Source of the DNA: a virus
DNA: 64,000 nt
Strand: one strand, 5' to 3'
IMG/VR virus record: IMGVR_UViG_3300045256_000058
Coordinates: 82,348-146,347 of that record
In this document: piece after piece, positions 34,457 to 57,309 of the stretch
Numbering within the stretch: position 1 is the first letter of the stretch
How the letters are laid out: each line of letters begins with the position of its first letter
The notes under the pieces: model-generated
Told to the model about the DNA's origin: nothing
Database searches by the model: none
The model's input: only the letters and a program-made list of their open reading frames with translations
Made by a program: the position numbers and the translations under genes

Positions 34457-34485
34457 GGGCTTTCGTAATTGGAAGCCCATTTTTT
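34457..34485 (+). terminator. Intrinsic terminator
   Basis: GGGCTTTC/GGAAGCCC hairpin followed by T6. Confidence 0.65.
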
Positions 34486-36080: not shown

Positions 36081-36203
36081 GGTTTTGACTACCTATTTGA
36101 CGCTTCAACCTATTTACTCTGTAGATATTGAAGCAATCGGTTTGATTACACTGGGCATAGCCTGTATAGGTATTGTTCTAGCTCTTATCTTTAGTGATTA
36201 ATT

Positions 36204-36656: not shown

Positions 36657-36664
36657 TCTAGATA

Positions 36665-36716
36665 AGAGGGTTTCAGCAATTCAACTGCTTTTTATTGCAA
36701 AGCCAAAAAACCCTCT
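36665..36716 (+). ncRNA. CAGCAA-motif small RNA, copy 1
   Basis: AGAGGGTTT/AAACCCTCT closing helix, CAGCAA at 36674-36679, inner GCTTT/AAAGC hairpin, A-rich 3' linker. Confidence 0.7.
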
Positions 36717-37580: not shown

Positions 37581-37609
37581 TTGACATTAGCTATAAGTTT
37601 CGCTAATAT
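37581..37609 (+). promoter_or_regulatory. sigma70 promoter for CAGCAA RNAs 2-3 and the DUF2828 gene
   Basis: TTGACA-17bp-TAATAT; the predicted start falls at the 5' end of RNA copy 2. Confidence 0.8.
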
Positions 37610-37615
37610 GATATA

Positions 37616-37678
37616 AGAGGAATTCAGCAATCTACTTATCCCTTTGATTCATACTCAAAAACGGAAAAAAATTCCTCT
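37616..37678 (+). ncRNA. CAGCAA-motif small RNA, copy 2
   Basis: AGAGGAATT/AATTCCTCT helix, CAGCAA at 37625-37630, inner TTTGA-TTCATAC-TCAAA anticodon-like hairpin. Confidence 0.75.
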
Positions 37679-37691
37679 GCTTAAAGATTTT

Positions 37692-37747
37692 GGGGATTCA
37701 GCAACTCACTGTATTATTTCGCCAAACTTGGAATAAAAACAATCCCC
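37692..37747 (+). ncRNA. CAGCAA-motif small RNA, copy 3
   Basis: GGGGATT/AATCCCC helix, CAGCAA at 37699-37704, inner TTATTTC/GGAATAA hairpin. Confidence 0.75.
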
Positions 37748-37779
37748 TAGTTAACCTTCATTGATTTTTGGAGTGTATT

Positions 37780-39354: not shown

Positions 39355-39386
39355 AAAAAACTAGGAGGTGAAAGTCCTCCTCTCAT

Positions 39387-39508
39387 GCGGCGTTGGTGTA
39401 ATGGTAGCATCTAACAGCAAAAACCCCTCTTAGTGTAGAGGTTCAGCAATTTAATTAGCTTATTTTCTTTGAACGAAAAAGGAGAGGGTTCGAGTCCCTC
39501 ACGCCGCT
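39387..39508 (+). ncRNA. tRNA-like RNA with an inserted CAGCAA module (Y RNA/YrlA-like candidate)
   Basis: Acceptor GCGGCGT/ACGCCGC, D-arm GTGT-AATGGTA-GCAT, ~51-nt insert with CAGCAA at 39415 and 39444, arm TTTTC-TTTGAAC-GAAAA, T-arm GAGGG-TTCGAGT-CCCTC. Confidence 0.8.
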
Positions 39509-39531
39509 TACCATTATTAAGGAGGTAATAT

Positions 39532-39945
39532 ATGGGTTATCAAACTAAGTTTTCTATTTCGATAGAACCTATGGATAAGAGTTTGGTTGCATCTCCATCA
39601 AATAAGCCACTATTGTTTGAAGAATACACTAACCCTGCCATTTATATTCCCAATCAAATCTCAGAAGCGATTGCAAAAGAAATGGGAGTGGATGATATTA
39701 GAACATACGATGACCTGCAAGATATGTTCGATAATGATTCTATGAAATGGTACTCTTACAAAAAAGATGTTGTAAAAGTGAGTGCTAAGTTTCCTGGCTG
39801 GTTAATTACAATTAGCGGAGAAGGTGAGCAAACAGAGGATGTGTGGAATACATATTTTCTTGACGGTAAGTATCAGCACGCACAGGCTGTATTTTCTATC
39901 GAACCATTTGATGAATCAAGACTTGTATCCTTGAATCGTATCTAG
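39532..39945 (+). CDS. Conserved phage hypothetical protein
   Basis: Perfect AAGGAGGT RBS; 'MGYQT.F...KWY...S.KFP...ISGEGE..D.W..YF.DGK' pattern. Confidence 0.8.
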   Translation: MGYQTKFSISIEPMDKSLVASPSNKPLLFEEYTNPAIYIPNQISEAIAKEMGVDDIRTYDDLQDMFDNDSMKWYSYKKDVVKVSAKFPGWLITISGEGEQTEDVWNTYFLDGKYQHAQAVFSIEPFDESRLVSLNRI

Positions 39946-40191
39946 TAGTAAAATATTAGATATACTTCAATTAGGTTACTCGATGAAAGTAGAACAAATT
40001 AAACGCATCTGCAAGTCTTTTGGATACAATTCAAGCTTCGTAGTTAATTATTTTCTAACTAAGAAAGACACTGAAGTACCAGTAGTTACTCAAGTATCTG
40101 GGTTAAGAAAGAAACATTGGGAGTATTTTATGAAGAATTATATTACTCCTAAGTACGGTGCAAGTTTGGATGACTAATTAGGAGTACAAAA

Positions 40192-40353
40192 ATGGCAAAT
40201 ACAATGGTAATTTCATGTTCTTGTGACCATGAATTTCAAAACAATGAATACGGAAACGGTAAGAGACTAGCCAATCTAAATGAAAAAGCTGGTAAAGCTA
40301 ACTGTACGGTATGCGGTAAGCAACACATCTACAAAACCCCAAGCACTAAGTAA
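40192..40353 (+). CDS. Small Zn-finger-like protein (53 aa)
   Basis: AGGAG RBS; MANTMVISCSCDHEFQNNEYGNGKRLAN...CTVCGK. Confidence 0.7.
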   Translation: MANTMVISCSCDHEFQNNEYGNGKRLANLNEKAGKANCTVCGKQHIYKTPSTK

Positions 40354-40552
40354 ATATGTATGGAATTGTTCCCCCAGGTCTAGAGCCTAAAGTAGAAAAC
40401 TTTTACAGAGAAGGTACAGATAAAGCTGTACTATTTGATACACTTACTGCCGCAGTAAAGTACATCGAATCTCTTCCTGTAGCTAATAAGTTTCTCTTCA
40501 AGATAGTTTACGTTTCTCTTTCAATCGAAAAAATTATTACGAGGTAATTCAA

Positions 40553-40879
40553 ATGCGTAAGTTCACTCTTCCTGCCGTAGCAGGTGTTCTCGCTCTTTCT
40601 TTGGCTGCATGTGGTCTGTCTGCTCAACAAATTCGTGCAAATGCAATTGCAAATGCTAATGATTTTGCTGGTCGTAGTCAAGGACGTTACAGTGTAGTTG
40701 ATTGTTCTGGTCGTGATTCTGATAAGGAAGGTACTCCTGGTTACGGTTATGTAACTTGTACTCTTTTAGATGCGAAGGATAACGGTAAGTCTGTAAATGC
40801 AGAATGTGGTTATCTTGAACTTGGTATTGGATGTAAGATTAAGGAAGATAAAACTCCTGTAGTCATTCAAAAATCATAG
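40553..40879 (+). CDS. Lipoprotein
   Basis: Lipobox 'LAAC' and four further Cys residues. Confidence 0.8.
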   Translation: MRKFTLPAVAGVLALSLAACGLSAQQIRANAIANANDFAGRSQGRYSVVDCSGRDSDKEGTPGYGYVTCTLLDAKDNGKSVNAECGYLELGIGCKIKEDKTPVVIQKS

Positions 40880-40888
40880 TTCAAACAG

Positions 40889-40917
40889 TTGACAACTTCA
40901 TTCTCAATTGCTAATAT
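40889..40917 (+). promoter_or_regulatory. sigma70 promoter upstream of the main tRNA region
   Basis: TTGACA-17bp-TAATAT with TGn extension. Confidence 0.8.
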
Positions 40918-40994
40918 AGTAATAAGGATGATTTAGTCATCTCCATTTTTGACCTCCGCAACTGGCTCTTAGAATCGACCCTGAGAGCCTTTTT

Positions 40995-41065
40995 ACTTCA
41001 ATGGTGTAGTGGTAGCACAGGAGATTCCAAACCTCTTAGCCTGGGTTCGATTCCTAGTTGTCGTG
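40995..41065 (+). tRNA. tRNA-Trp(CCA), acceptor stem with two mismatches
   Basis: GTGT/GCAC D-stem; GGAGA-TTCCAAA-CCTCT; CTGGG-TTCGATT-CCTAG; acceptor ACTTCAA/TTGTCGT; G73. Confidence 0.7.
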
Positions 41066-41615
41066 TTTTTTTTAAGTTCGGATAATCAATATGAAACTTA
41101 AATTTTGGTTTCATTCTCTATTTTGTGGGATTACATTTCGAGTAGGTAAATATACTTTAGGAATGTTTGGAAGTAACAAAAGAGAATATGAAAGAGGCGG
41201 TAGTACAGATTTTACATTTGATAACGGTACTACTCGTTGGGAATTATATCTTTACAATTACGGCGGTAAGCCTTGTTTAGATACGAACAGTATGCCTAGT
41301 TGGTATCACTAATGTCTAAAGAACAAAACAAAGAAGTAAAAACAACAACCCCTCCTGCTGCCCCTGTGCCCAATGTAACAGTGGTAACTGGTCAAGGACA
41401 ATCTACAAACGAGGATGAAGGTTCAACTAGAACTGTATATTGGAGTTAAAAATGGGTACAAGAGATATTCAGTTAGAAACACTAACTAAGTTGTGGCTTG
41501 AGAGAAAAAATGCGGCACTTAAATTACCGGAAAGTGAAGCAAAAATTACTCTACTTAAGCTAATTGAAGAAGAAAGAGTTTATTTAGGTATTCCAGAAGA
41601 AGCCTAAACAATCTT

Positions 41616-41679
41616 GGAGGGAGTCAGCAATCTAATTATGGATTACAATGTGATGTAAAAAACCAAACAAACTTCCTCC
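41616..41679 (+). ncRNA. CAGCAA-motif small RNA, copy 4
   Basis: GGAGGGAGT/ACTTCCTCC helix, CAGCAA at 41625-41630, inner TTACA/TGTAA hairpin, AAACAA linker. Confidence 0.75.
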
Positions 41680-41684
41680 GTTAT

Positions 41685-41755
41685 TCGGGTATGGTGTAAT
41701 GGTAACATAAGAGTCTTCCAAACTTTTGTTACGAGTTCGAGTCTCGTTACCCGAT
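41685..41755 (+). tRNA. tRNA-Gly(TCC)
   Basis: TCGGGTA/TACCCGA; AGAGT-CTTCCAA-ACTTT; ACGAG-TTCGAGT-CTCGT. Confidence 0.9.
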
Positions 41756-42266
41756 TCGTGAGCCTCTTTCGATGACCTTACGGCAGGTAGAAAGATGTGC
41801 CATGAAAGATGGGTCGCCGTTTTTACATAGGTTATACTACTTATGTAAATACCCATACCAAATCACATTATGTCTGAAACTAGATTGAACTGGTTAAACA
41901 CTAAAAAAGATTATATTCGTTACCTGTTTGCTCAAGCATTTGGTAATGCGGTAGCCGAAGTTGTAGCACAAGAGTTACGCTTCGGCTTTCGTATGGAAGA
42001 CAGATATGAGGATGTAATTAAATCATGCTGGCAAATGGCAGAAACAGCTACACAATTATTAGTTACGGAGGATGACGATGGAGAGTCTAGAGGAAAAGAT
42101 ATTTAACTATATTCGAGACAACCTTGACATTAGCCTGGAAAGAAGCTACGATAGTGATTATGGTAGTTATAATACAGGACTACATCTTACAGTCTTTCTA
42201 ACAAATCCTAAGACTGGACAGCAAGAAAGAATTATTTCTGAATATGTAACTCTAGATTAAGAGTTT

Positions 42267-42339
42267 GCTTCTTGATGCAGCTAGTGAAGCGACTTGTCTT
42301 ACAAACAAGGACTGAGAGGGGCGGAACCTCTAAGAAGCA
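42267..42339 (+). tRNA. tRNA-Val(TAC), atypical T-loop
   Basis: GCTTCTT/AAGAAGC; CTTGT-CTTACAA-ACAAG; AGAGG-GGCGGAA-CCTCT. Confidence 0.75.
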
Positions 42340-42817
42340 TATCGAAACCCTGGTCACAATCGAAATTCATAATGCCCTTGAATAGGAGAGGGAGATAAAG
42401 AATTACCAGATGCAGCGTTGTAGAGAGCCTCTTAAGAACAGGACGATACAACTCTTAGGTGGACGCATAGCTTATGCTGGTTTCGAGAGTATTATTACGG
42501 TGACAATTATGAGAGATGATAGTAAGTTACTTTTACAATACTTTCTTCGTCATGGAGATGTAGTTGAGAAAGCATTGATTGATTCTGTGACAGAGGGTTC
42601 ATCGTGGGATAATGAGCTGTCTGTAAATACTTGGTTATTGTCCACAATATTAATTGATTATTTTTGGACAAGGTTTGTTAAGTTACTTGAGTCTATTCCC
42701 GATGCAGAGGATAGAGACTTATTTATTTCCATTGCAAAGTATGTAGTTGGGAGTAATTTGGGGTTCAAAGAAGTTTCAACTGAGTTTATTAACAGAAAGA
42801 TAGAGCAGACTAAACAT

Positions 42818-42898
42818 GCGAGTATGGCGTAATGGTAGCCGCGTCAGTCTTAGAAACTGATGTCTTCGGGCGTGTAGGTTCGACTCCTATTACTCGCA
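42818..42898 (+). tRNA. tRNA-Leu(TAG)
   Basis: GCGAGTA/TACTCGC; TCAGT-CTTAGAA-ACTGA; variable arm; GTAGG-TTCGACT-CCTAT. Confidence 0.95.
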
Positions 42899-43088
42899 TC
42901 CCCTTCGTAAATTGCAAACACCTTTAACAAGTGAATGTAATTTATCGGGACACATCACCCTATGTGAGACGTGGGTACTACGGATTCCCAATTTTGTGTA
43001 GGTCGTGTAATTCAAAATTGGTGGTTATAACGTACCAAATAGCGCTAAACGTTAGACAGGGAGTGGAGTCATGAATTCACTCTCACTT

Positions 43089-43161
43089 CGAGCAGTAGTG
43101 TAATGGATTAGCACGAAGCGCTACGAACGCTTTAGTTTGGGTTCGAGTCCTGATTGCTCGG
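43089..43161 (+). tRNA. tRNA-Arg(ACG)
   Basis: CGAGCAG/TTGCTCG; AAGCG-CTACGAA-CGCTT; TTGGG-TTCGAGT-CCTGA. Confidence 0.9.
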
Positions 43162-43341
43162 TTGAGCCAGTACCTCTAAGCTGCTTGCTCACCCAACGAC
43201 TGTTGAGGGTTACTAGACAGCAGATATTTGATAATTTTTGCTGAGTAAAATTATACGCAATACTCATAACTTATACGGTTGTTAGAGGGCTATGCAAAGT
43301 TAGGGAGTATGCTTCGACATCTTAAGCACTGTCGAGGCTAT

Positions 43342-43412
43342 GGAGCATAACGCAATGGGTGCGCGGCTTGGCTTTCAACCAAGTGTAAAGGGTTCGAGTC
43401 CCTTATGCTCTT
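43342..43412 (+). tRNA. tRNA-Glu(TTC), atypical D-region
   Basis: GGAGCAT/ATGCTCT; CTTGG-CTTTCAA-CCAAG; AAGGG-TTCGAGT-CCCTT. Confidence 0.8.
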
Positions 43413-43637
43413 TTCGGTTTGCGTTATATAGGAGAAACCAGTATGGGAAAAACTATTCAAGATTTTCTCATGGAATCAGGAGCGAAATATTCGTCATTGT
43501 TAGGTGAATGCTACGAGACTTTCGTTTCAGATGTACTTGAGGGGAATTATGATTTAGCTTTAGAATTATTATTAACTTGCTCTTCTGAAAAAGCAGTAGA
43601 AGCTGAAAAGGTTATCAGTCTACTGTAGAAGTGATAT

Positions 43638-43688
43638 GCGGGGCTTGTGAGGACAGTGTACATTCGGGGTTCGACTCCCCTCCCCGCA
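43638..43688 (+). ncRNA. Miniature tRNA-like element (acceptor + T-arm, no anticodon arm)
   Basis: GCGGGG/CCCCGC-A with GGGG-TTCGACT-CCCC; only ~22 nt lie between the two. Confidence 0.55.
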
Positions 43689-43696
43689 TCTAGTAT

Positions 43697-43768
43697 CTCT
43701 GGGATGCCGAAGTAGATAGGCGAAAGATTGCAACCCTTTTGTAGCAGGCGCAAGTCCTGTCCCAGAGT
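43697..43768 (+). tRNA. tRNA-Cys(GCA), atypical T-loop
   Basis: CTCTGGG/CCCAGAG, U73; AAAGA-TTGCAAC-CCTTT; GCAGG-CGCAAGT-CCTGT. Confidence 0.8.
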
Positions 43769-43775
43769 CTTATAA

Positions 43776-43847
43776 CGCAGTGTAGCTTAATGGTAGAGCA
43801 TGAAATTCATATCTTCAGGGGTGGTAGTTCGACTCTACCCACTGCGA
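43776..43847 (+). tRNA. tRNA-Met(CAT) (elongator Met or Ile2 not resolved)
   Basis: CGCAGTG/CACTGCG; TGAAA-TTCATAT-CTTCA; GGTAG-TTCGACT-CTACC. Confidence 0.85.
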
Positions 43848-43860
43848 TTAGGAGGTAAAT

Positions 43861-44352
43861 ATGTTATTAGATTTGATTCACAAAATTGCGGCATTTTATA
43901 AACGAATAGGTAAATATAAAGTTATTATGGGTCGAGAGAATCCAGATAAGCTTTATTTAGAAAGACATTACTTACTGTTTCCTATGTCCTGGGAAAAGTT
44001 TATGCCTTTCAATGTTTATCTACATCGTTTTCATGAGTCTGATGATGAAGCTTGGAATGTACTTCATGACCATCCCTGGAATTGGATAAGTATTATTCTA
44101 ACGGGTAAGTATATGGAAACTAAAAAGACTGAGAATGGATTTAGTTTTCATGAAAGAAAAGCTGGAAGCATTCGTTTTGGTAAAGCTGATGATGCTCACC
44201 GAGTAGACTTAATTACTGACCCAGAAGTAGAAGAAATTTGGACAATTTTTATTACTGGTAGAAGATTTAGAGACTGGGGTTTTGTTAAAGACGGTCAATG
44301 GACATTCTGGAAAGATTATCTGGGTCTAAATAGACAGCACAAGGAGATTTAA
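43861..44352 (+). CDS. Cupin-fold protein
   Basis: 'VYLHRF..SD...LHDHPW...SIILTG.Y.E...HRV...WTIFITG'. Confidence 0.8.
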   Translation: MLLDLIHKIAAFYKRIGKYKVIMGRENPDKLYLERHYLLFPMSWEKFMPFNVYLHRFHESDDEAWNVLHDHPWNWISIILTGKYMETKKTENGFSFHERKAGSIRFGKADDAHRVDLITDPEVEEIWTIFITGRRFRDWGFVKDGQWTFWKDYLGLNRQHKEI

Positions 44353-45209
44353 TGAAATATGGTTTCGGAGCTAATTACATCCTGCTTACATATTTTGACA
44401 GAGTGGTACTATCTTTCGGTAAATTACTTGCTATCTTTAGCCCAAGACACAACCCTGATGACTACGATTTCGGAGATACTGTTATCTATTGGAACGGTCG
44501 TTTGGTTCTTTATCTTGATTGACGATATAGAGAGTAGAAAGTAATGGTTTACAATCCTTTTGATACGATTTGGAAGTTTTCCGTATTTAGATATGACGGA
44601 ATTTATACTTCTCCTCGCATGAATCTATTTGATATTTATGCGAAGTTACAATCTTGGTACTCACTTGACGAAGTATCTTATACAGTATTTCTAGCTTCCC
44701 TAAAGGATTTACTTCTAAAGGGCGATAGTACAATCAAAGTTGGATACAGTGACTACCATATTTTCATTGATGACAATTCTATTAGCACCAATAGCGCAGA
44801 GCTTGCAGCAGCATGAGCGAAACATTAACTACGACATCTAATGAAGAATTAGATATTGATTCATTATTCGATGAGTTAAATACTCCATTTACATTTCTTC
44901 AATTTCTATCTACTGATGGGGAAATGAAACATCATAGATTTGATTTGGTTAGAAAATTTCCTACTGACCTAGATGTAAATGAAGTTACATATCCCATTAA
45001 ACATGGTGGTTTTACTGGCGTATGCGTAGGAAGAGATGGTGATGGCTACTTTGTTGCCTCGGATAGAGCAAGAAGTTTTAGCTTTCCCACTATTGATAGT
45101 ATTCCAGATGATGTAATACTTCGTCTAGGTCAAACATTTAATCTTCGTCCACTATTCTAGTTGTTATGTTGTATCATATTTTGGAAAAGTGAAGTGCTTT
45201 TCCTTTCTT

Positions 45210-45293
45210 GGGTAGGTATGCAAATTGGCTGAAGCAACCTGTCTGTAAAACAGTCGTCCCTGACCGTTGGGGGTTCGAATCCCTCCCTACCCA
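45210..45293 (+). tRNA. tRNA-Tyr(GTA)
   Basis: GGGTAGG/CCTACCC; CTGT-CTGTAAA-ACAG; variable arm; GGGGG-TTCGAAT-CCCTC. Confidence 0.9.
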
Positions 45294-45912
45294 TTTTCAA
45301 GGTGATAATATGAAATTTTTTGATGTAAAACCTAATTGGAATTGGAAAGAATTCTATTTTGAATTACCCTTTTCAAACGGTAATATTTGGATTGAATGTG
45401 ACTTAGATAATAACGTTTACTATGACATTAGTATTCGTAAAATGTACAATGTTAAACCTAAATTTCAACGACTACTTGGAACTAGAGATTCAATGACTTT
45501 ACTTTCTATTGGATTTTTAATTCCTTTTCGTAAATCTAGTAATGGAGCAATTTAGCATGTCAGACCCTAAAGAAGAAGCAAAGCAATTAATAGCCCAAGA
45601 TTTGTCACCGAATCAATATGTAAGCAGAGAAGGTGATGATAGAAACTCTTATCGTGTTGCTGGGAAAGTTTATTCCGAAGCTAACGATGGAAGTGTAGAC
45701 CAAATTGTTATTGAAGTAGGTAGTGAGGTCAGAACTATGAATGTATCTGATATGAGTCTATGATTGAATTAATATCATTATTCGTGGGATTTCTAAGCAT
45801 TACTGGTGGTGGAGCTAGTTTAGCTCAAGAACTAGACAGTAGTGACCGTAAACCTACTTTTCTCGATGACCAAGAGGCTGGTAGGGTAAAGAGTAGACCA
45901 GCAAAATAACAT

Positions 45913-45997
45913 GGAAGGTTGACAGAGTGGTAATGTGCTGCACTGCTAACGCTAGGCTAGGGTAACACCTACAGGAGTTCGATTCTCTTACCTTCCG
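45913..45997 (+). tRNA. tRNA-Ser(GCT), distorted anticodon stem
   Basis: GGAAGGT/ACCTTCC, G73; loop CTGCTAA; long variable arm; AGGAG-TTCGATT-CTCTT. Confidence 0.8.
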
Positions 45998-46066
45998 CTT
46001 ACAGTTAAGGAGTTATACGAAAACGTCTGATAGTGTGTTTCATAGCCAGTATAGTTAGCAATTTGA

Positions 46067-46096
46067 TTGACATATTTAATATCTGTCGCGTATAAT
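46067..46096 (+). promoter_or_regulatory. Consensus sigma70 promoter
   Basis: TTGACA-18bp-TATAAT. Confidence 0.8.
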
Positions 46097-46137
46097 TATT
46101 GAATGGTGAAAAACCAAATATTGAATGCGGCAGACAT

Positions 46138-46210
46138 GGAATCTTGGTGAAGATGGTTCTCACGTCTGTCTGAAGAACAGAAGAATCCAGTTCGATTCTG
46201 GGAGATTCCA
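46138..46210 (+). tRNA. tRNA-Phe(GAA)
   Basis: GGAATCT/AGATTCC; TCTGT-CTGAAGA-ACAGA; T-loop TTCGATT. Confidence 0.9.
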
Positions 46211-46431
46211 TTAATGGAAATGAACACTAATACGACTTTCGACAACAGATTAGATTTTATCGGACGAAACAGCAGTGCCATAGTTTGTATCTATGTAAAA
46301 ACCTTGCTTGAAGAACTTTCATGTAACGACAAACTAAAGACGGAGTACGAAGAGTGGCTTTCAAAAAGAGCTGAATTACGGCACAAGATATACGAAGCTT
46401 GCTCACAATCAACAGAAATACAGGTGACATT

Positions 46432-47112
46432 ATGAAACTAAGTATTGAAATCAGACCCGGAGAAGGTGGAAAGGATGCTCAATTGTTAGTATCCACAGTA
46501 GCAGATATGTATAGAAGCTATTGTTCTAGAAGTGATATTAAATACTCTGTTATTTCAGACGGGCTTAATTAGCTGACAATCGAAGTAGAGGGAAAGGAAA
46601 AAGTTGTCAAGCCCCTACTTCAAGAAGCTGGAGGACATAGATTTCAACGTATTCCTCCTACAGAGAAAAGTGGAAGAGTTCATACCTCTACAGTTACAGT
46701 AGCGGTAATGGAAATATCTTCAACCTCTTATTCTATTTCTAGAGACGACATTAAAGTTAGAACTACTAAAGACAGTGGTGCTGGTGGTCAACATAGAAAT
46801 AAGACTGAAAGTTGTGTGGTAATGAAACATGAGCCAACAGGAATCACAGTCAAAGCAGCAAAGAAATCCCAACATCAAAACCGAAAGAATGCAAAGAAAG
46901 AACTTGAAGTTCGAGTACAGCATTGGCATCAGAAAAATGAAAAGATTGCTGAAGATGAAACTCGACGCATTCAAGTAGGTAGCGGAATGAGAGGGGATAA
47001 GGTTCGTACCTATCGTGAAAGAGATGATATTGTAATTAATCATATTTCTAACGGTAAGGCACGTTACTCCGATATATTGAGCGGAAGGTTAGAAAAAATA
47101 TGGCAGAGCTAG
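46432..47112 (+). CDS. Class I peptide chain release factor, RF1-type, lacking domain 1, with in-frame UAG at codon 47
   Basis: MKLSIEIRPGEGGKDAQL...DGLN*LTIEVEG...EAGGHRFQRIPPTEKSGRVHTSTVTVAV...GAGGQHRNKTESCV...RGDKVRTY. TAG at 46570-46572; both parts are in the same frame. Confidence 0.9.
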
Positions 47113-47663
47113 GTAAAGTTCTTATTGTAGATATTGAATCTACTTGTTGGGAACAAGGTAAACAACCGAAAGACCAATCTTCTGAGATTATTGAAATCGG
47201 ATTGTCATTAGTTGATACGAAAGACTTAAAAATTATCTTTACCGATTCGTGGTTAATTCAACCAACTGAATCACAAATATCTGGTTTTTGTACTACATTA
47301 ACTGGTATTACTCCAAATATGCCGGGAGCAGGTTATAGAACTTTCTATGACTCTTTAATGTATCTTCGTAATAACTATAACTCTAAGAAAGTTGCTTGGG
47401 GAAGCTGGGGTAATTACGATAGAAAGATGTTTCAAAATCAATGTTCATCGAGAGGTGAGTCGTATCCATTTAGTGACACTCATATTAATGTAAAGAATTT
47501 ATTTGCATTAGGCAGAGGGTTAGAAAGAGAAGTAGGCATGGCTGAAGCTCTTAAGTACGAAGGCATGGATTTGATTGGAAACCACCATCGAGCAGGTGAT
47601 GATTCGTTGAATATTGCTCGACTTTATATCTCTTTACTTAGAGACTTACGCAGAGGTAATTAG
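47100..47663 (+). CDS. DEDDh 3'-5' exonuclease (ERI-1/KapD-like)
   Basis: 'IVDIESTCW', 'EIIEIG', 'FCTTLTGIT', 'SWGNYD', 'HHRAGDDS'. Confidence 0.9.
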   Translation: MAELGKVLIVDIESTCWEQGKQPKDQSSEIIEIGLSLVDTKDLKIIFTDSWLIQPTESQISGFCTTLTGITPNMPGAGYRTFYDSLMYLRNNYNSKKVAWGSWGNYDRKMFQNQCSSRGESYPFSDTHINVKNLFALGRGLEREVGMAEALKYEGMDLIGNHHRAGDDSLNIARLYISLLRDLRRGN

Positions 47664-47960
47664 AATGGCTAAACCGTTAAATGAGATTGAACAACTCAAA
47701 CAAAATATGACTGCTATGTTTGCACTTCAAATGGCAGCTTTTGGCTTACAACTACAACAAGCTGTGGGACTTAGCAACAAGAAGCGTGAAGAAGGAATGA
47801 ATGTTCTTCGTCAAGCATCTGAATTAGTAAATGAAATGCAAGCTAGTATTCGCTACGAAGAAGAAACAGAAAGTGCAACTGAGCAAGTAGAGACTTCTGA
47901 AGATGATTTAGAAGAGGATATTTGGGATGCTATTGAGCGTCGTCTTCTTAAAAGTGTAAT

Positions 47961-48032
47961 GGGGGCTTAGTGGTAATGGCAGCACGTTGCTTTTGCACGG
48001 CAAAGGTAGGAGTTCGATTCTCCTAGCTTCCA
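47961..48032 (+). tRNA. tRNA-Ala(TGC)
   Basis: GGGGGCT/AGCTTCC with G3-U70; TTGCT-TTTGCAC-GGCAA; AGGAG-TTCGATT-CTCCT. Confidence 0.9.
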
Positions 48033-48034
48033 CT

Positions 48035-48108
48035 GTGACTGTAGCATAATGGCTTGAATGCACTGGACTGTGAATCCGGTAATACGAGTTCGATTCTCGT
48101 CAGTCACC
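48035..48108 (+). tRNA. tRNA-His(GTG)
   Basis: GTGACTG/CAGTCAC, C73; CTGGA-CTGTGAA-TCCGG; ACGAG-TTCGATT-CTCGT. Confidence 0.9.
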
Positions 48109-48234
48109 TAAAGATTAGTGATTTGTATCCCGCCTTAAGCCTTTATGGTGACAAAGCTTAGATATGGCGCTAAGACTAATCTTTAGCAGATGAAAACACG
48201 CTAGAACTGCTTTAACAAAAACTAGCGGACTTAT

Positions 48235-48317
48235 GGGAAGAGTATTAAACACCTCAGTTATGAGATGTCCCGCAAATTACTAATGGTAAATGTTGGTTCG
48301 AATCCATCCTCTTCCCC
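48235..48317 (+). ncRNA. tRNA-like element with non-canonical middle
   Basis: GGGAAGAG/CTCTTCCC closing helix and T-loop GG-TTCGAAT-CC; no canonical D or anticodon arm. Confidence 0.5.
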
Positions 48318-48365
48318 TGTACTGAAAATGGTACTATTATATGTGACACTATCTTTGCCACATAT

Positions 48366-49343
48366 ATGTTTGAAATTCCAGAAACATCGAATCTTCTTGA
48401 TACGCTGTATTACAATACTGCACAGGAACACTATTGGTCTACTCCTATTCCATATTCGGGACAGACTTTGGACTTATATAAACTGCTTCACTTAAGAGCA
48501 GATTTATGTAACTTTATTGTAAACGAAGCGTATAATATACTTCATCCTAAGTATCCAGATGTTCCATACGAAGTAATCCGAGTAGAAGTACTATGTACAA
48601 ATATTAATAAGTCGTTTCTAATTACGGCTATTGATGCGAAAGAGATACTTTTAAGTGGCATCATAGATACTGAGTTCATTTCTAAGACTGGTATCATTTC
48701 ACATGACGAATATCACAGTGTAATTAAAGATATTCTAAAGGGAATATTGGAGCGAGATAATCGTTATAATTCTCTAGTAAGCAGAGGACTAATAGATTAT
48801 TTTACTACCTATCATGATATTGCTGGTCATAGACTCGTAAGAGAACTAGCCCCAGATGATGTGATTGATGAGCTTTGTTTCACATCTAGAATGCAAAGAA
48901 ATCAACCCATGAATACGCACTTTATCTTCGGTAAGTTATTAGCTCCGTTATTCAGAGATTGTTGTCAAAAGAACTTTGACCGTAGAACTATCTTTGAAAC
49001 AATGGTATCTAAGCTAGTTCTTTATTTAGAAGGTAAGACATCGTTATGTGACGGGGATGGTAATTGTCATTTTCTAGGTTGCCAAGTAACACAATTAGAG
49101 GCAGACTACGCTACACGCTCACACGCGGGAGAGCCTACAGTTAGTCACTATGCTCCTGTGTTATATACACGGTACAGAGAGGACAATGTATATCAGGGTG
49201 ATTACTTAGATAAGTTTCTATTAAAAGCTGATTTGTATTCCTTTTTAGTAAGACTTAGCCAAAGAACACAACGGTCAATCTATCAAGACTCCTTCTATAT
49301 GAGAGACGAAGTAATTCAAACTGCATTTTCAAAGTTTGCGTAA
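48366..49343 (+). CDS. Hypothetical protein
   Basis: 325-aa ORF. Confidence 0.75.
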   Translation: MFEIPETSNLLDTLYYNTAQEHYWSTPIPYSGQTLDLYKLLHLRADLCNFIVNEAYNILHPKYPDVPYEVIRVEVLCTNINKSFLITAIDAKEILLSGIIDTEFISKTGIISHDEYHSVIKDILKGILERDNRYNSLVSRGLIDYFTTYHDIAGHRLVRELAPDDVIDELCFTSRMQRNQPMNTHFIFGKLLAPLFRDCCQKNFDRRTIFETMVSKLVLYLEGKTSLCDGDGNCHFLGCQVTQLEADYATRSHAGEPTVSHYAPVLYTRYREDNVYQGDYLDKFLLKADLYSFLVRLSQRTQRSIYQDSFYMRDEVIQTAFSKFA

Positions 49344-49505
49344 AAGCAAATGAAACCTACTTTCACAGCTATGGGTGGAAACACATGATTGGTTGCTTGA
49401 AATCCACAGGTCACTTCAATGGTCAAAGAACGGTCAACGAGCATTAGGTTGAGGCGTAGTTGGTATTTTGTAAGGAACTGCAAAATATACGAAGTAGGTT
49501 GTCAT

Positions 49506-49576
49506 CGGGCATTGGTGAATGGGTATCACATCTACCTGTCTAGTAGAATTAACGAGTTCGAGTCTCGTATGCCTGG
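49506..49576 (+). tRNA. tRNA-Asp(GTC)
   Basis: CGGGCAT/ATGCCTG; TCTAC-CTGTCTA-GTAGA; ACGAG-TTCGAGT-CTCGT. Confidence 0.9.
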
Positions 49577-49931
49577 TATTTAGTTTAGGAGTATGTTTAT
49601 GTTACTAGCTCAAATTGTTTTTCAACCATCTTGTACTGCTGCTACTTATGCAGTTCGTATTCCTGGTAGCGGCTTGACATTCGATAAAAAATATACTACA
49701 GTAGAAAGATGCTCCTTCGATACCTCAATGGGTGCTACTGAAGGGTATCAAATTAAATTCACATCTAAGGCTAGTTTGAATAAAGCTTATGCAGAATTAG
49801 CAAAGATGTACAAAAACATCATGCGGGTAGAGAATAGAGTTTCACGATAGGAAAATCTTAGTATTCTAGACTATGCGAACATGAGTACTATGTTGCATGA
49901 AGTAGGTGCAAGTTCTACCACCCGCTCTCTT

Positions 49932-50002
49932 CGGGATATAGTAGATGGGTATAACTGGAAGTTTGGGACTTCCAAAACTGGGTTCGAGTCCTAGTATCCC
50001 GA
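49932..50002 (+). tRNA. tRNA-Pro(TGG)
   Basis: CGGGATA/TATCCCG; GGAAG-TTTGGGA-CTTCC; CTGGG-TTCGAGT-CCTAG. Confidence 0.9.
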
Positions 50003-50155
50003 TATGAAAAAGAAAACGTTACTTGTAAAAGAATCTAATGCAGTCGAAATAATCGAAGCATTTAGAAAATATCCAGAGTATGAAGTCGTTGTTGTAAAAG
50101 ATAACGACTTTTCTTTAGCTCTAAAAATATTATTACAACAGAGGTCAAATGTAAA

Positions 50156-50944
50156 ATGAAACTTGTTACTGGCGGAGGCATGGATGTTATGCACGATGCC
50201 CATAGAGTATTTTTCGCTCGAATAATAGATGCCGCGATTAATGAGTATCAAATAGATAGTATTATCTATATGCTTAAAACTAACGAGCATTTAGTGAAGA
50301 CTAGAAACTCTTATCGTCCTTATTTTGATTATGCTTGGAGATACAGAGATACAGCCAGATTTATTCATTCTAACTACCCTAAGCTTCGTTTCGATATTCT
50401 TCCTTATAATTCTGTATTAGATACTATCTCGGTATTGAATTCTGAAAGTGTAATCGGAGCATCTGAATATTACACAGGATTAGATAGTACAGGATTACCT
50501 ATTATTAGAATACCTGAGATTGGTGGTCATCATAGTTCAGATATTCTAAGCGCATTGAATGCAGCTTCCGCACAATCTCCATGTCACTATGTAAATATCG
50601 GAGCAGTCTTACTTCGGGCAGGAAATATAGTAGCAACTGGATTTAATAATAACGATTGTGATTCATGTCCGAAAACAATTGAATGGAAAGAAAGCGGAAA
50701 GCCTAACTACAATGATATTCAATATAAGAATGCGTGCAATGCTATTCATGCAGAGGATATGGTATTGGAAAACTCTTTACCTGGAGATGATTTGATTCTT
50801 ACTCATTCACCTTGTAGTAAATGTGCAAATTTAATTATTGAGAAACAAATTAGAAGAGTAGTTTATCTGAATGAGTATGTTTCTACAAAAGGTATTGATG
50901 TTCTAAAAAACGCAGGTATTCAAGTTAGAAAAGCGGGATTATAA
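50156..50944 (+). CDS. Cytidylyltransferase-like domain fused to dCMP deaminase
   Basis: N-terminal 'GGGMDVMHDAH' (HxGH-like) and 'HSSDI'; C-terminal 'IGAVL...TGFN...IHAE...THSPCSKC...VVY'. Confidence 0.8.
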   Translation: MKLVTGGGMDVMHDAHRVFFARIIDAAINEYQIDSIIYMLKTNEHLVKTRNSYRPYFDYAWRYRDTARFIHSNYPKLRFDILPYNSVLDTISVLNSESVIGASEYYTGLDSTGLPIIRIPEIGGHHSSDILSALNAASAQSPCHYVNIGAVLLRAGNIVATGFNNNDCDSCPKTIEWKESGKPNYNDIQYKNACNAIHAEDMVLENSLPGDDLILTHSPCSKCANLIIEKQIRRVVYLNEYVSTKGIDVLKNAGIQVRKAGL

Positions 50945-50946
50945 AA

Positions 50947-51468
50947 ATGGAAAATGATATTGTTCAATTACTACATGGAGATACGCTAGTAGATAAAGCT
51001 GACAATTTAAGAATTACTGCTCGACAGCATGGTGATAGCAACCTGTCAGCATTAATGTCTCTACTTGTTTCTGATGCTAGAAAACTAGCTAAGGATGCTA
51101 TTGTCGAAGTAACTGATTCTCACATTACACAAGCTGCGAAGTCTCTTGTTAAGAAAAATAATGAAGCACTTAATATCGTAGCTAACAAAGTTGATTCAGA
51201 AGCAAAACAGCAATACAGTAATCAACTATTACGTGAGAATTTAATTCTACATAATTTTATTCCTCAAGCTCTAAGTGACGATGTAGTAGAAGATATTATC
51301 CGTACTGAACTTAAATTTGATATGACGACTGCGGGATTATCTATAGGTAAGATAAAAGGTACGGTAATTAAAGCTCTGAAAGACTATGTAAACACACATA
51401 GTCTAAATATTGACTTTAGTAAAGTTCCTGCGCTAGTTGACAAAGTTATCTCTTCTTATGTAGAATAG
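50947..51468 (+). CDS. GatB/YqeY-domain protein
   Basis: 'VTDSHITQAAKSLVKK...EN.IL.NFIPQALSDDVVEDII...GKI.G'. Confidence 0.7.
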   Translation: MENDIVQLLHGDTLVDKADNLRITARQHGDSNLSALMSLLVSDARKLAKDAIVEVTDSHITQAAKSLVKKNNEALNIVANKVDSEAKQQYSNQLLRENLILHNFIPQALSDDVVEDIIRTELKFDMTTAGLSIGKIKGTVIKALKDYVNTHSLNIDFSKVPALVDKVISSYVE

Positions 51469-51766
51469 AGTAAGATGATAGACCTTATATCAAAGATATT
51501 CGATAAGCATACTTGGTTCAATTTACTTGTAATCTTGATAATGCTTCTGTCAGTAGTTAGCGGTTTGGTGATACTTACTTACTATTTCCCCGTATCTTTC
51601 CAGTTACAAACTAATGTTATTAGAGATGAGACATACGAAACTCACTATAAGACATATAGAACATGGAGTACGATTGAAAAACAAAATGGGGCTATTGTTC
51701 ATCTTAGTATCACTAACAAAGTAACTGTAAAAAGAGATAACCTTGTAGAAAAACCAGTGACGTAAT

Positions 51767-52201
51767 ATGAAAGGCTATACATTAGTGGAACTCTTAGTTG
51801 TCATTTTTATAATTGGCATACTAACTGCTATAGCCCTTCCAAGTTTCGTCAGTACGTCTTTTCGAGCAAAGGAAACTCAGGGTAGGTTATTCATATCTCA
51901 GATAAATCGTAGGCAACAAACTTACTTTACTGAGCATGGAGTATTCGCAAATAACCTTGAAGATTTAGGTATTGTGAATGAAAAACCTACCTTTTACAGT
52001 TTCTTTTTTAAGTCAAAAACAGGATATACAAAAGATGTCCAAGTAGATGCTACTCAGAATTTTTCTAATCCAAATATGAGAGATTTTAGAGGGTGTGCAT
52101 ACTATGTGCAAAGTACAGACCTTAGTAAAGCTCCCGATGTAGTTACTACTGAATTTTATGAATACTTTCCAAGTAATTCAATTCCTGTGACTTGTCCATA
52201 A
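51767..52201 (+). CDS. Type IV pilin-like protein (cyanobacterial PilA/GspG-H type)
   Basis: 'MKG|YTLVELLVVIFIIGILTAIALPSF...RAKE......I..INR.QQ.YF.E.G.FA..L..LG'. Confidence 0.9.
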   Translation: MKGYTLVELLVVIFIIGILTAIALPSFVSTSFRAKETQGRLFISQINRRQQTYFTEHGVFANNLEDLGIVNEKPTFYSFFFKSKTGYTKDVQVDATQNFSNPNMRDFRGCAYYVQSTDLSKAPDVVTTEFYEYFPSNSIPVTCP

Positions 52202-52204
52202 TGA

Positions 52205-52277
52205 TGCTAGGTAGCGCAAAGGCAGACGCGGCAAGCTGTTAACTTGTAGTATGTAGGTTCGACCCCTATCCTAGCAG
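52205..52277 (+). tRNA. tRNA-Asn(GTT)
   Basis: TGCTAGG/CCTAGCA; GCAAG-CTGTTAA-CTTGT; GTAGG-TTCGACC-CCTAT. Confidence 0.9.
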
Positions 52278-52295
52278 TTGATTTGAGAGTTAGAG

Positions 52296-52925
52296 ATGAT
52301 ACGAGAGTTTTTAAGACATTTATCTTATAAGGTAAAGCAAATATTTACGTCTCCAATAGTTCTTCTGTATTTACTTACGAATAGAAAAGAGACTATAGAT
52401 GCTGACTTAAAAAGATGGAAGTTTGTTAGAAATATGGGTGAAAAAACAAATCGAGGTCTTTTAGTTGTTTTATTTATGGGCAATAAAGAATATCGTAATT
52501 TGTTTTATCATCGAGTTCAGAGAGGGAATACTTTAGCTTGGATACTACTTCCAGTCTTTAAGTTTTTCTATCCACCTGAACCTACTCTAAAACTTTATGC
52601 TGACAATATCGGTGATGGATTGTATATTCAACATGGTATTGCCACTATTGTAAGAGCCGAAAAAATTGGAAAAAACTGCCACATTGGACAGCAAGTAACA
52701 ATAGGTTCAAACTATGGTTTACTTCCTACTATTAAAGACCATGTGTATATTTATGCAGGTTCAATTGTAGTTGGAGATATTGTTCTTGAAGATAATGTAA
52801 AGATAGGTGCTAATTCAGTTGTCATAAGAGATTGTGAAGCTAATAACACTTATGTAGGTAGTCCCGCTGAGAAAGTAGTTAGAAAAAGAGAGAAGTTATC
52901 TGATACTAACTATGTAACAGCTTAA
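52296..52925 (+). CDS. Serine acetyltransferase-like hexapeptide-repeat acyltransferase
   Basis: 'IGDGLYIQHG..T', 'IGKNCHIGQQVTIG', 'IGANSVV', 'VGSPA'. Confidence 0.85.
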   Translation: MIREFLRHLSYKVKQIFTSPIVLLYLLTNRKETIDADLKRWKFVRNMGEKTNRGLLVVLFMGNKEYRNLFYHRVQRGNTLAWILLPVFKFFYPPEPTLKLYADNIGDGLYIQHGIATIVRAEKIGKNCHIGQQVTIGSNYGLLPTIKDHVYIYAGSIVVGDIVLEDNVKIGANSVVIRDCEANNTYVGSPAEKVVRKREKLSDTNYVTA

Positions 52926-53478
52926 GTAATCTCAACCGAGAGGAGTGAGTTCTTTCCGCAAAGATAATAGTTCTACTCACTTAAATAAATTAGATATTGG
53001 TTAGCCATACCTTTATCGTAAAGAACTATATGCCGCTTTTTAACTGTTTATGAAGTTTAGCGAATCCTTGTGCGTAACAAGATAAAAGAAAAACTTCTGA
53101 TTGACGACTTCTTTGGTTAGGTTTATTATCGTCTTAAAATAAATATAGAACCTTTCGGCAGAAAGAAGGGTCTTTTAGACTCATAGCAACTGCCCAAACA
53201 AATGCTTTAAGTCACTGTTCAGTGTGACTCTAAATATAAGATACTGAACAACTAGGTGGTGCTTTACAGAGTTTTGGCACTTTGAAGACGATACCCAGAC
53301 ACTCGCCCTTGACGCGAGACACGGAGTACGGTATCATTCATGCGGCGGAGACACAATTCTGGTGCGATGTGGTATGGTAGTCCAGTCTATGACGTAAGTG
53401 GCGTAATTCCTAATTCCCCTCTATAGCCAGTGGAAACGTACTTATATTGAATAGAGTCTTTAATCAAAACTCTACTTA
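52926..53478 (+). ncRNA. Candidate large ornate RNA (~550 nt; ROOL/GOLLD-like size and setting)
   Basis: ORF-free. Long-range pairings 53004-53011/53371-53378, 53127-53135/53285-53293, 53268-53276/53465-53473; loop pseudoknot 53216-53223/53243-53250; abuts tRNA-Gln. Confidence 0.7.
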
Positions 53479-53479
53479 A

Positions 53480-53551
53480 TGAGGAGAAGACAAATGGCAA
53501 GTCGGCTGGCTTTGAACCAGTATATAGTGGGTTCGATTCCTACCTCCTCAG
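53480..53551 (+). tRNA. tRNA-Gln(TTG)
   Basis: TGAGGAG/CTCCTCA; GCTGG-CTTTGAA-CCAGT; GTGGG-TTCGATT-CCTAC. Confidence 0.9.
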
Positions 53552-53953
53552 TTTATTTTTAGAGTATTTTCGGAGGTTCTCATTATGGTTTACAGAATAC
53601 CTAATTTAGGTAGTTTATTTTTAGGAAGAGATGGTACATTTCTTTTTTCAATGGGTATTCCTTTCACTAAGGGTACTTATGCCATTGAAATAACAAGTTA
53701 TCCGGGTTTTTCTGGTCAGACAAATGGAATGTTCGAGCTTGAAGTATATACTCCGAATCGTGTTTATGATTTGGATATGTTCGTAGACTCCAATACAAAC
53801 AAACCTAAAATTGAATTTAATAGTTGGGAAAAATAATTATGAATACTAATGAATTGGTAGAAAATGCGTCCCGTAAAGTTCGAGCAGGAACTACAAAGGT
53901 TATGAATTATCTTGAACGTCAGGAATGGATTAAGAAGAATTTTCCTGGTATGT

Positions 53954-54337
53954 TTAAGAATGTTGACGAATCTTCAAACAATTAGAGCAAACAACATCAC
54001 ACTTGCTCATTTCAAATAGAATACTTTTTCTTCCTCTACCACTCGAAGCTGATATATCAAAGGACTTAAAATTCCCTTCTTTATAATCGAAATCCATTAC
54101 ATAAGAAGGGAACCTTTGATTACAGTCAGCACAAGGTCTATTTTTGTAGCTAGAAATAATATTCTCTAGATACCTCTTGTAATACTTGTTTCTATCCTTA
54201 TACTCTTGCTGATGAGTAGCATAATGAGTAGAAAGAATACTCTTTTGACAGTTTCTACAATAAGACTGTAAAGACTTACCTCTTTTATTAAATTCTGATT
54301 CTTCTAGCTCTTTATGGCATCTAGTGCATATCTTCAT
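53954..54337 (-). CDS. Zn-finger/HNH endonuclease-like protein, probably inactive
   Basis: 'KICTRC...EF...LQSYCRNC', 'PCADC', 'MDFDY' (usually DFDH), 'KCDVVCSNCL' (usually CANCH). Confidence 0.75.
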   Translation of the reverse strand: MKICTRCHKELEESEFNKRGKSLQSYCRNCQKSILSTHYATHQQEYKDRNKYYKRYLENIISSYKNRPCADCNQRFPSYVMDFDYKEGNFKSFDISASSGRGRKSILFEMSKCDVVCSNCLKIRQHS

Positions 54338-54780
54338 GTTTTGAATCCTAATTAATAATTCTAAACATAATTATACTCTCTTTGAGTGTTAGTATAAGAA
54401 TAGTTAAAGATATAAGAGGTTTTTATGTATATTAAGTCTTTACACACACGTTTTTATTACACATCCCGTTTCCAAGTGGTAGACACTGATGAAATTAAAG
54501 ATGTAATGGAACATGGTCAACCCCACTACTCTATTGATTCTTTCGATAAGCCAGTAGTTACAGGTAAGATTTACTTCATGGGTCTGACTGAGCAAGTAAC
54601 TGAAAATGATGGACAGATTGTTAGAACAGCTCATGTTCTCAGCGCACCAATTGACCACATTGACACTTACATTGAATACGGTTCCGATTACTACAATAGA
54701 TAGGTTTTTTTGTTAGGCAAGTTGATGTTCCGTACTTGCTTTAAGTGCGGAATTTTTTATGAAAAACTTATTCGTTTTAT

Positions 54781-54865
54781 GGAAGATGTCCGGTTGGTCG
54801 AGGAAACTATCTTGAAAATAGCTGAGATGAAATATGCTTCGGGGGTTCGATTCCCTCATCTTCCG
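54781..54865 (+). tRNA. tRNA-Ser(TGA)
   Basis: GGAAGAT/ATCTTCC, G73; CTAT-CTTGAAA-ATAG; variable arm; GGGGG-TTCGATT-CCCTC. Confidence 0.9.
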
Positions 54866-55390
54866 TTATAAGAGGTCATTATGTTTACTACAGAAAAAAT
54901 AGAATCACTTTTGTTTTTCATTAAAAGTGTTGGAATTGTTTGGGGAATACTACTGCTTATTATTGCTGCTATTGCTGGTTTTATAGGTATTACCTTTTGG
55001 TTAATCGCTCTAAATAGTTGGCAAGGATGGTTAGGTTTTACATTATTCCTTAGTTTAATAGTTGCTATTTCTGTCGTTATTCAATATTCCTAATATGTCT
55101 AAAACTCTAACAATAGAATTTAATGATTACATTAGTAAGGCAGTATTTGAGGAATGGTTACGAGATATAAGTAATACTGAGCAACTTAATCATTACTTTG
55201 CTAGAATGTATTCTATGGGAAGTCCCATGCCTAGAGAAGGTGAAACAATAGTAACTGCTTTGCAACGACATGCTAGAGAAACTGCCAGTATAGTAAAGAC
55301 TATGACAGTATTAATTGGTAGAGAGAATAAAGATAAATACGGTGTAGAAGTACACTATGACCCTAAATTCCTAGACCAAGATTAAAATAT

Positions 55391-56997: not shown

Positions 56998-57141
56998 CGG
57001 GAGATAGGCAACGTAGTTAGCCGCTGGAATGCAACAAAGTACCTCCGTGTACGCATAGACCGCAAAATCTATGCAGAGGTAGTCAGCAAGTAAAATGCTA
57101 ATAGGAGCCAGTGTATGTAGGTGCAAATCCTACTCTCCCGA
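56998..57141 (+). ncRNA. tRNA-like RNA with the anticodon loop replaced by a CAGCAA module
   Basis: CGGGAGA/TCTCCCG-A; GGC/GCC D-stem; GCTGG/CCAGT stem enclosing TACCTC/GAGGTA and CAGCAA (57084-57089); GTAGG-TGCAAAT-CCTAC. Confidence 0.7.
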
Positions 57142-57149
57142 CTAATTAC

Positions 57150-57218
57150 GGGGATGTAATGGTTTTCGACTGCTGAGTATTACTTGGTAGGACTTGGGTT
57201 CGACTCCCAACATCTCCA
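57150..57218 (+). ncRNA. tmRNA-like RNA consisting only of the tRNA-like domain
   Basis: GGGGATG/CATCTCC-A with G3-U70; stemless D-loop TAATGGTTTTCGAC; short hairpin; GGAC then TTGGG-TTCGACT-CCCAA. Confidence 0.75.
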
Positions 57219-57309
57219 TCGACATATAGTTTCCCGGTCACTTAATACTGGGTTCAGGGAAGGTAATTCTTCCCTTTTTTATTGGGTAAATTCCCTATTG
57301 GAGGTTAAT

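Follow-up and report, generated by a model that had tools for sequence, protein, structure and literature searches.

The window analysed here, a 64,000-nt stretch of DNA, is the right-hand 64 kb of a virus record of 146,347 bp, which CheckV rates as complete and which has a G+C content of 36.6%. At 57150-57218 on the plus strand lies a 69-nt tmRNA-like gene, hereafter the mini-tmRNA, which comprises a tRNA-like domain (TLD) only and runs from G1 to the discriminator base A73. As listed in Table 1, it closes a phage tRNA array of roughly 23 genes; ARAGORN in default mode called 21 tRNAs across the whole phage genome. The tRNA-Cys(GCA)-like gene immediately upstream combines a perfect acceptor stem and T-arm with a large insertion located within the anticodon arm or next to it, which ARAGORN -i reports as a 50-nt "intron" at position 39. 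It was missed by default ARAGORN and by Rfam at the gathering threshold, and it would fill the Cys gap left by default ARAGORN in the tRNA set of the phage.

The tRNA-Cys-like gene and the mini-tmRNA are probably co-transcribed, and processing of the RNase P type would free the 5' end of the mini-tmRNA. The terminator-like hairpin downstream is the probable end of this transcription unit, which also includes a tRNA-Ser and several small ORFs, one of them encoding a NUDIX hydrolase. The following gene begins at the ATG at 57310, which is preceded by GGAGG, and the listed ORF starting with TTG at 57184 is an artefactual extension of it. Thus, the mini-tmRNA is intergenic and closes its transcription unit.

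The phage also encodes a candidate CCA-adding enzyme of the class II nucleotidyltransferase type, which could complete the CCA-less phage tRNAs and the mini-tmRNA, as judged from its sequence. An RF1-like protein devoid of domain 1 may bear on the handling of termination or stalled ribosomes by the phage; its frame is broken by one TAG at 46570-46572. Relatives of the DUF2828 protein are annotated as "Ro-like RNA binding protein" in mycobacteriophages and are widespread in large tRNA-rich phages. No SmpB gene was found in the phage genome, and the mini-tmRNA would therefore need the SmpB of the host.

Table 1. Coordinates of the mini-tmRNA, its parts and other features. Positions refer to the window unless stated otherwise; R1 is the covariance model built in this work for the TLD-only family.
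Feature	Position	Strand	Evidence or remarks
Mini-tmRNA, whole gene	57150..57218	+	CCA not encoded, next bases TCG; RF00023 62.8 bits, R1 63.8 bits
Acceptor stem, 5' strand GGGGAUG	57150..57156	+	Pairs with 57211-57217, 7 bp including G3:U70
Stemless D-loop analogue (UAAUGGUUUUCGA)	57157..57169	+	tmRNA-typical GG and UUCGA(C); RF00023 consensus alignment; invariant columns in the family alignment
P2-like hairpin	57170..57190	+	Closing C-G and 8 further pairs (3 of these G-U), AUU triloop
T-arm	57194..57210	+	5-bp stem UUGGG/CCCAA, 7-nt loop UUCGACU
Acceptor stem, 3' strand CAUCUCC, and discriminator A73	57211..57218	+	Sequence
Phage tRNA array	27216..54866	+	17 ARAGORN tRNAs in the window, all on the same strand, none with encoded CCA
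tRNA-Cys(GCA)-like gene	56998..57142	+	ARAGORN with introns allowed; ends 8 nt upstream of the mini-tmRNA
Terminator-like hairpin (8 pairs), then TTTTTATT (T-run)	57256..57283	+	38 nt downstream of the mini-tmRNA
Candidate CCA-adding enzyme, 248 aa, PolyA_pol head domain only (class II nucleotidyltransferase)	19537..20283	+	PF01743 66.9-68.4 bits
RF1-like protein without domain 1	46432-47112	+	Matches RF1 models at positions 107-336; GGQ and PPT motifs
DUF2828 and DUF7788 protein, 528 aa	37768-39354	+	phrog_850 "RNA-binding protein"
tRNA-Ile(TAT), 95 nt, unusually long	34485-34579	+	ARAGORN/Rfam
Extra Rfam tRNA match, not called by ARAGORN	45913-45997	+	Rfam, 41.7 bits
Anti-restriction-like protein	11064-12119	+	phrog_7245
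NUDIX hydrolase, in the transcription unit of the mini-tmRNA	55491-55982	+	
DPBB (RlpA-like) lytic-transglycosylase-domain protein, just downstream of the mini-tmRNA	57885-58268	+	
Permuted tmRNA of S-CRM01	1460-1681 (extracted locus)		
Permuted tmRNA of S-CBWM1	1454-1732 (extracted locus)		
Permuted tmRNA of S-CAM1	1455-1723 (extracted locus)		

Anatomy and fold of the mini-tmRNA

The Rfam tmRNA model RF00023 matched the mini-tmRNA at 62.8 bits (gathering score 47, E 3.6e-22, model positions 1-374). The tRNA-like domain aligns to the model from end to end, while 3 nt stand for 306 model positions, so that pseudoknots PK1-PK4 are gone. An initial annotation, made from the letters of the DNA, had described a tmRNA-type 5' half and a GGAC-containing 3' half with G3-U70, A73 and a stemless D-loop, joined by a hairpin of about 20 nt. 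All of these features were found. The gene opens with GGGGATG...GGTTTTCGAC and ends with GGAC-TTGGGTTCGACTCCCAA-CATCTCCA; between them stand the stemless D-loop analogue and the GAC/GGAC junction that opens P2, followed by the 5-bp T-stem with its 7-nt loop. The spacer from CGAC to GGAC measures 19 nt and is used completely by the 9-bp hairpin (3 G-U) with its AUU loop, which occupies the place of the ~300 nt of pseudoknots and tag frame. The hairpin is bordered by GA at 57168-57169 and GA at 57191-57192, which Rfam pairs as G.A/A.G. All 21 of the 21 helix pairs are intact, and the acceptor, P2 and T stems contain no mismatch. Since both alanine identity elements (G3:U70 and A73) are present, charging with alanine is predicted.

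The canonical fold has a free energy of -22.8 kcal/mol against -24.3 for the minimum free energy (MFE) structure, and is itself the MFE structure when pairing of the D and T loops is forbidden. The default MFE fold, in which the D loop pairs to the T loop, was rejected; the canonical fold lies 1.5 kcal/mol higher but is supported by covariation.

The gene is not a two-piece tmRNA, as the initial annotation had also stated. The 3' acceptor piece does not lie upstream of the 5' piece, the order of the halves is not permuted, and the two-piece model RF04321 gave just 14.1 bits (E 9.9) on the mini-tmRNA. The claim that a tag reading frame is missing was borne out as well: the mini-tmRNA has no resume codon, tag reading frame or stop codon, and no tag-like ORF exists in any frame of the 69 nt. 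Of the two programs which that annotation had named for recognizing the gene, Rfam succeeded, whereas ARAGORN made no call at this locus in either default or tmRNA-only mode. With a lowered threshold ARAGORN returned permuted-tmRNA calls spanning 300 nt, which we judged to be spurious.

Hence, the mini-tmRNA is a phage gene that copies only the tRNA-like, alanine-accepting end of tmRNA, with a likeness far beyond chance. Because the defining messenger features are absent, it is a homologue of the tRNA-like domain of tmRNA and not a functional tmRNA.

A recurring family of TLD-only RNAs in phages

By DNA polymerase (48% identity), the nearest isolates are Pseudanabaena phages Pam2 and PA-SR01, and neither genome contains a tmRNA-like gene. 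Searches for closer relatives returned none, whether by blastn (near and distant) with the mini-tmRNA locus against INPHARED, by tblastn with the 464-aa protein of the neighbouring gene, or in IMG/VR with the DNA polymerase and the two small ORFs flanking the mini-tmRNA. DNA of this phage is present in hot-spring and microbial-mat metagenome runs, possibly including the source sample; no RNA run was among the matches listed. In contigs from four runs the sequence was identical, and the one divergent run had no coverage of the gene. When the 3' half of the mini-tmRNA was compared with 401 cyanobacterial genomes, 29 of the 401 matched at 2-3 mismatches and none matched more closely, which is too weak to name a host.

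A strict degenerate pattern, in which the halves of the tRNA-like domain are joined by 8-38 nt, was searched in IMG/VR and yielded 76 loci with 52 distinct sequences of 75-80 nt. ARAGORN called only 2 of these 76 loci. Other tRNAs were nearby at just 12 of the 76, several of which lie at the edge of large tRNA arrays like the window copy; the family is thus independent of tRNA arrays. The same pattern gave 8 loci in 185,579 prokaryotic species genomes (one genome per species), and at least 1 of the 8 is a phage contig. TLD-only tmRNA-like RNAs are therefore carried by viruses rather than encoded in cellular chromosomes.

When the acceptor stem was not imposed, this relaxed pattern matched at least 119 IMG/VR loci. 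The matches listed comprised 125 distinct sequences, 113 of them with a clean acceptor stem, and the rest resemble the 3' ends of ordinary tmRNAs. Among these 113 listed sequences, G3:U70 is retained in 112 and A73 in all 113, and CCA is encoded in 35.

A covariance model of the family (R1) was built, with which 59 sequences were realigned. In this alignment 94.1% of the cells form standard pairs, compared with 70.2% in shuffles and at most 59% with slid partners. In the P2 stem, both sides have changed in 6 of the 7 pairs and 96.6% of the cells are paired. As P2 lies outside the search pattern, its covariation is independent evidence of a selected RNA structure. The first two pairs of the T-stem also covary. 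R1 scored the window copy with an E value of ~3e-14, and the true tRNAs of the same phage reached at most 23 bits.

These observations bear on the idea that the gene is an attP-type site, that is, a partial copy of host ssrA through which integration would leave the host with a restored tmRNA gene. Integration at tmRNA genes is indeed common, and prophages contain ssrA fragments (PMC9004378 and PMC4131195). Such a site needs only the 3' part of ssrA, however, whereas the mini-tmRNA comprises both halves, linked through a folded hairpin; moreover, the complete 146-kb genome yielded no tyrosine integrase, and the family covaries as RNA. An attP role is thus extremely improbable.

The members of 75-80 nt have in common a conserved A-rich internal loop (UAAA/UAAG); next come a hairpin of 3-4 bp that opens with CC and then A(A)C. 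The pairs of this inner hairpin are just 75% paired in the model alignment. A tag frame in the longer members was sought by eye from a GCC resembling a resume codon after the UAAA; no conserved in-frame stop was seen and the candidate was dropped. Other mini-tmRNA contigs shared no genes with the window phage in tblastx, and tblastn searches of 174 mini-tmRNA loci with the RF1-like, CCA-enzyme-like, Ro-like and NUDIX proteins of the phage were without hits. An unannotated TLD-only mini-tmRNA is present in Streptomyces phage pSt2308, within its tRNA array (PV588686.1 33356-33436, RF00023 61 bits), and Streptomyces phages LuckySocke and GiJojo gave similar blastn matches, with no tmRNA annotated at the matched sites.

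At 69 nt the window copy is shorter than almost all family members. It lacks the conserved A-rich loop and inner hairpin, and R1 aligns 7 nt in place of 18 model positions. Targeted scans for plain-hairpin forms of 60-72 nt found three contigs in two groups in IMG/VR and nine contigs in about five groups in JGI metagenomes. In one pair of short-form variants, U:A in the hairpin is replaced by C:G, a compensatory change, and the short-form contigs share no detectable genes with the window phage. Because the short forms recur in unrelated contigs (at least 6 other unrelated contig groups), they are a rarer but recurrent minority variant and not a unique deletion, and the window copy belongs with them. 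The initial annotation had proposed to look for the same short form in related phages; it was seen in unrelated contigs, and the nearest isolates, Pam2 and PA-SR01, have no tmRNA-like gene.

The reduced size of the window copy raises the question of decay, in which the gene would be an inactive deletion derivative of a full-length or DS6A-type gene. The loss of the inner hairpin fits this reading, as does the failure to find lineage relatives that could show purifying selection. On the other hand, neither the helix pairs nor the identity elements are damaged, the gene is neatly spaced between the upstream tRNA and the downstream terminator, and the plain-hairpin form recurs elsewhere with a compensatory change. 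We thus regard a decaying remnant as very improbable. The window copy is one of a large, recurring phage RNA family rather than a one-off.

Relation to known tmRNA systems

The gene is of a type that was already known. A "TLD only" tmRNA without coding sequence (CDS) was described for Mycobacterium phage DS6A (JN698994.1 28478-28557, tmRNA Website tmID 11587) by Hudson, Lau & Williams 2014 (PMC4131195); CDS-less tmRNAs are also reported from jakobid mitochondria and, as ~65-bp genes, from Mallomonadaceae plastids (PMC11915505). DS6A is the only phage example of a TLD-only tmRNA named in the literature, while the type is widespread in phage sequence. What the window copy adds is the short variant without the inner hairpin.

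The DS6A RNA resembles the window copy in being phage-borne and unpermuted, with G3:U70, A73, a stemless D-loop analogue, GAC/GGAC and a T-arm, and with neither tag frame nor pseudoknots. Each scores about 64 bits on R1 (64.4 bits for DS6A). As in most of the family, whose members measure 75-80 nt, P2 of the DS6A RNA opens into the conserved A-rich internal loop and inner hairpin (UAAR-NCC...GGN-AC), whereas the window copy forms a single plain hairpin. The hosts also differ: DS6A infects mycobacteria, whereas the window phage is a low-GC phage of a hot-spring mat with cyanophage-like relatives.

The standard one-piece tmRNA (SsrA, RF00023) has the tRNA-like domain in common with the window gene, but the latter lacks the resume codon, tag frame, stop codon, PK1-PK4 and an encoded CCA. 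Having no messenger features, it cannot act as a messenger. The CDS-less organellar tmRNAs are of similar size and show the same reduction to the tRNA-like domain. They are the only tmRNA of their compartment, and the jakobid mitochondrial ones pair with a dedicated nucleus-encoded SmpB; the window gene, in contrast, is viral and would work beside, and probably against, the full-length tmRNA of the host.

Cyanophages S-CRM01, S-CAM1 and S-CBWM1 likewise carry tmRNA-derived genes near tRNAs. The acceptor piece of S-CRM01 is 93.5% identical to the 3' half of the window gene over 31 nt, and the GGGGAUG/CAUCUCC acceptor stem is shared. These cyanophage genes, however, have the full length, a circularly permuted order and a coding piece (RF01851/RF04321 72-128 bits), whereas the window gene is unpermuted and has no coding piece. 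The permuted tmRNA genes are unannotated in the records of S-CRM01 (NC_015569.1, about 88334-88555), S-CBWM1 and S-CAM1, although RF01851 alone scores them at 74-128 bits.

Proposed function

Without resume codon, tag frame or stop codon, the mini-tmRNA cannot perform trans-translation, and we therefore propose that it acts as a competitor. As far as sequence can tell, it would compete with host tmRNA for SmpB and thereby lower ssrA tagging during infection, a reading we consider somewhat probable. The mini-tmRNA would be part of the transcript that covers the end of the tRNA array, from which tRNA-processing enzymes would excise it, and it would receive a CCA end from a phage or host nucleotidyltransferase. 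Host AlaRS would then charge it with alanine through G3:U70 and A73, and host SmpB would bind it. In this form it would compete with host tmRNA for SmpB, and probably also for AlaRS and EF-Tu. Consequently, fewer proteins from truncated messages would be tagged by the ssrA system and degraded during infection.

Competition for SmpB is favoured because the tmRNA of E. coli is strongly inhibited by a TLD-only RNA, chargeable or not, perhaps through titration of SmpB (Mao et al. 2009, as cited in PMC4131195 and PMC11915505). According to PMC3022190, the tRNA-like domain is the SmpB-binding region of tmRNA, crystals of SmpB with TLD fragments show 1:1 binding, and SmpB also promotes alanylation and protects tmRNA. 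Both functions suggested by the initial annotation, a sponge for SmpB and rescue of ribosomes without a tag, appear reasonable by analogy, and the inhibition in E. coli is a published precedent for the sponge. A counterpoint to competition is that the inner hairpin, which is conserved in most family members including DS6A, is missing from the window copy.

The retained identity elements form a further difficulty. As the inhibition reported in PMC4131195 does not need chargeability, a pure sponge for SmpB leaves the near-universal G3:U70 and A73 unexplained. Their retention hints that entry into the ribosome matters, and it keeps a role at the ribosome alive. Where a broken phage or host message has stalled a ribosome, the mini-tmRNA, charged with alanine and accompanied by SmpB and EF-Tu, may thus enter the empty A site and accept the nascent chain. 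The peptidyl-RNA would be freed by drop-off and peptidyl-tRNA hydrolase, or by a hydrolase of the release-factor type; ribosomes would be released, and the protein would gain one alanine and no degradation tag.

Such productive rescue is in line with the alanine identity kept in 112 and 113 of the 113 listed members although it was not imposed, and with the GGQ-bearing RF1-like protein of the phage. In published models (PMC3022190), the unit that enters the A site is the Ala-charged tRNA-like domain with the SmpB body. CDS-less tmRNAs, which in jakobid mitochondria occur together with SmpB and are also present in some plastids, are assumed still to assist with incomplete mRNAs (PMC11915505). 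The sole experiment cited shows inhibition and not rescue. The search of the 174 loci, moreover, found no link between the RF1-like gene and mini-tmRNAs. No mechanism is known by which a complex of peptidyl-TLD could be resolved in the absence of a resume codon. Taken on these points, tag-less rescue is possible, though rather unlikely.

A more elaborate form of this idea is that the mini-tmRNA is the RNA half of a phage strategy of "rescue and keep", which would replace the "rescue and destroy" of the host. On ribosomes halted by a cleaved phage message, the nascent chain would pass to alanyl-mini-tmRNA with host SmpB, and a hydrolase would free the untagged chain, the candidates being the domain-1-less RF1-like GGQ protein of the phage, host ArfB and peptidyl-tRNA hydrolase. 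This strategy is decidedly unlikely; if it were true, the plain-hairpin short form would be the minimal RNA that enters the ribosome with SmpB.

The mini-tmRNA might also serve as a decoy or ligand for a partner other than SmpB, such as host nucleases or toxins that attack the tRNA acceptor or T-arm, RNase R, or phage RNA-binding proteins; the likeness to tmRNA would then reflect evolutionary origin only. The position of the gene among tRNAs and odd tRNA-like genes, beside a tRNA with a large insertion, is consistent with this, as is the Ro-like DUF2828 protein of the phage, and the independence of the family from tRNA arrays is counted on the same side. However, the features conserved in the family (the stemless D-loop analogue, GAC/GGAC and P2) are specific to tmRNA and not to tRNA, which points to the own partners of tmRNA. 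A non-SmpB decoy is thus quite improbable, and competition with host tmRNA for SmpB remains the reading that we prefer.

Bacteria rescue ribosomes and tag proteins mainly through trans-translation. Broken messages, which feed this pathway, arise both from phage infection and from anti-phage RNases. By occupying SmpB, a small phage RNA would counter it in a simple way. The TLD-only class is widespread in phage sequence; ARAGORN missed 74 of the 76 strict-pattern loci, and the pSt2308 copy is unannotated. The interest lies mainly in this class, which is experimentally almost untouched, and less in the window copy itself. The latter shows that a tRNA-rich phage with cyanophage-like relatives has retained a 69-nt bare-hairpin version, and, with a design close to the fragments co-crystallized with SmpB, it is a natural minimal construct for testing the class.
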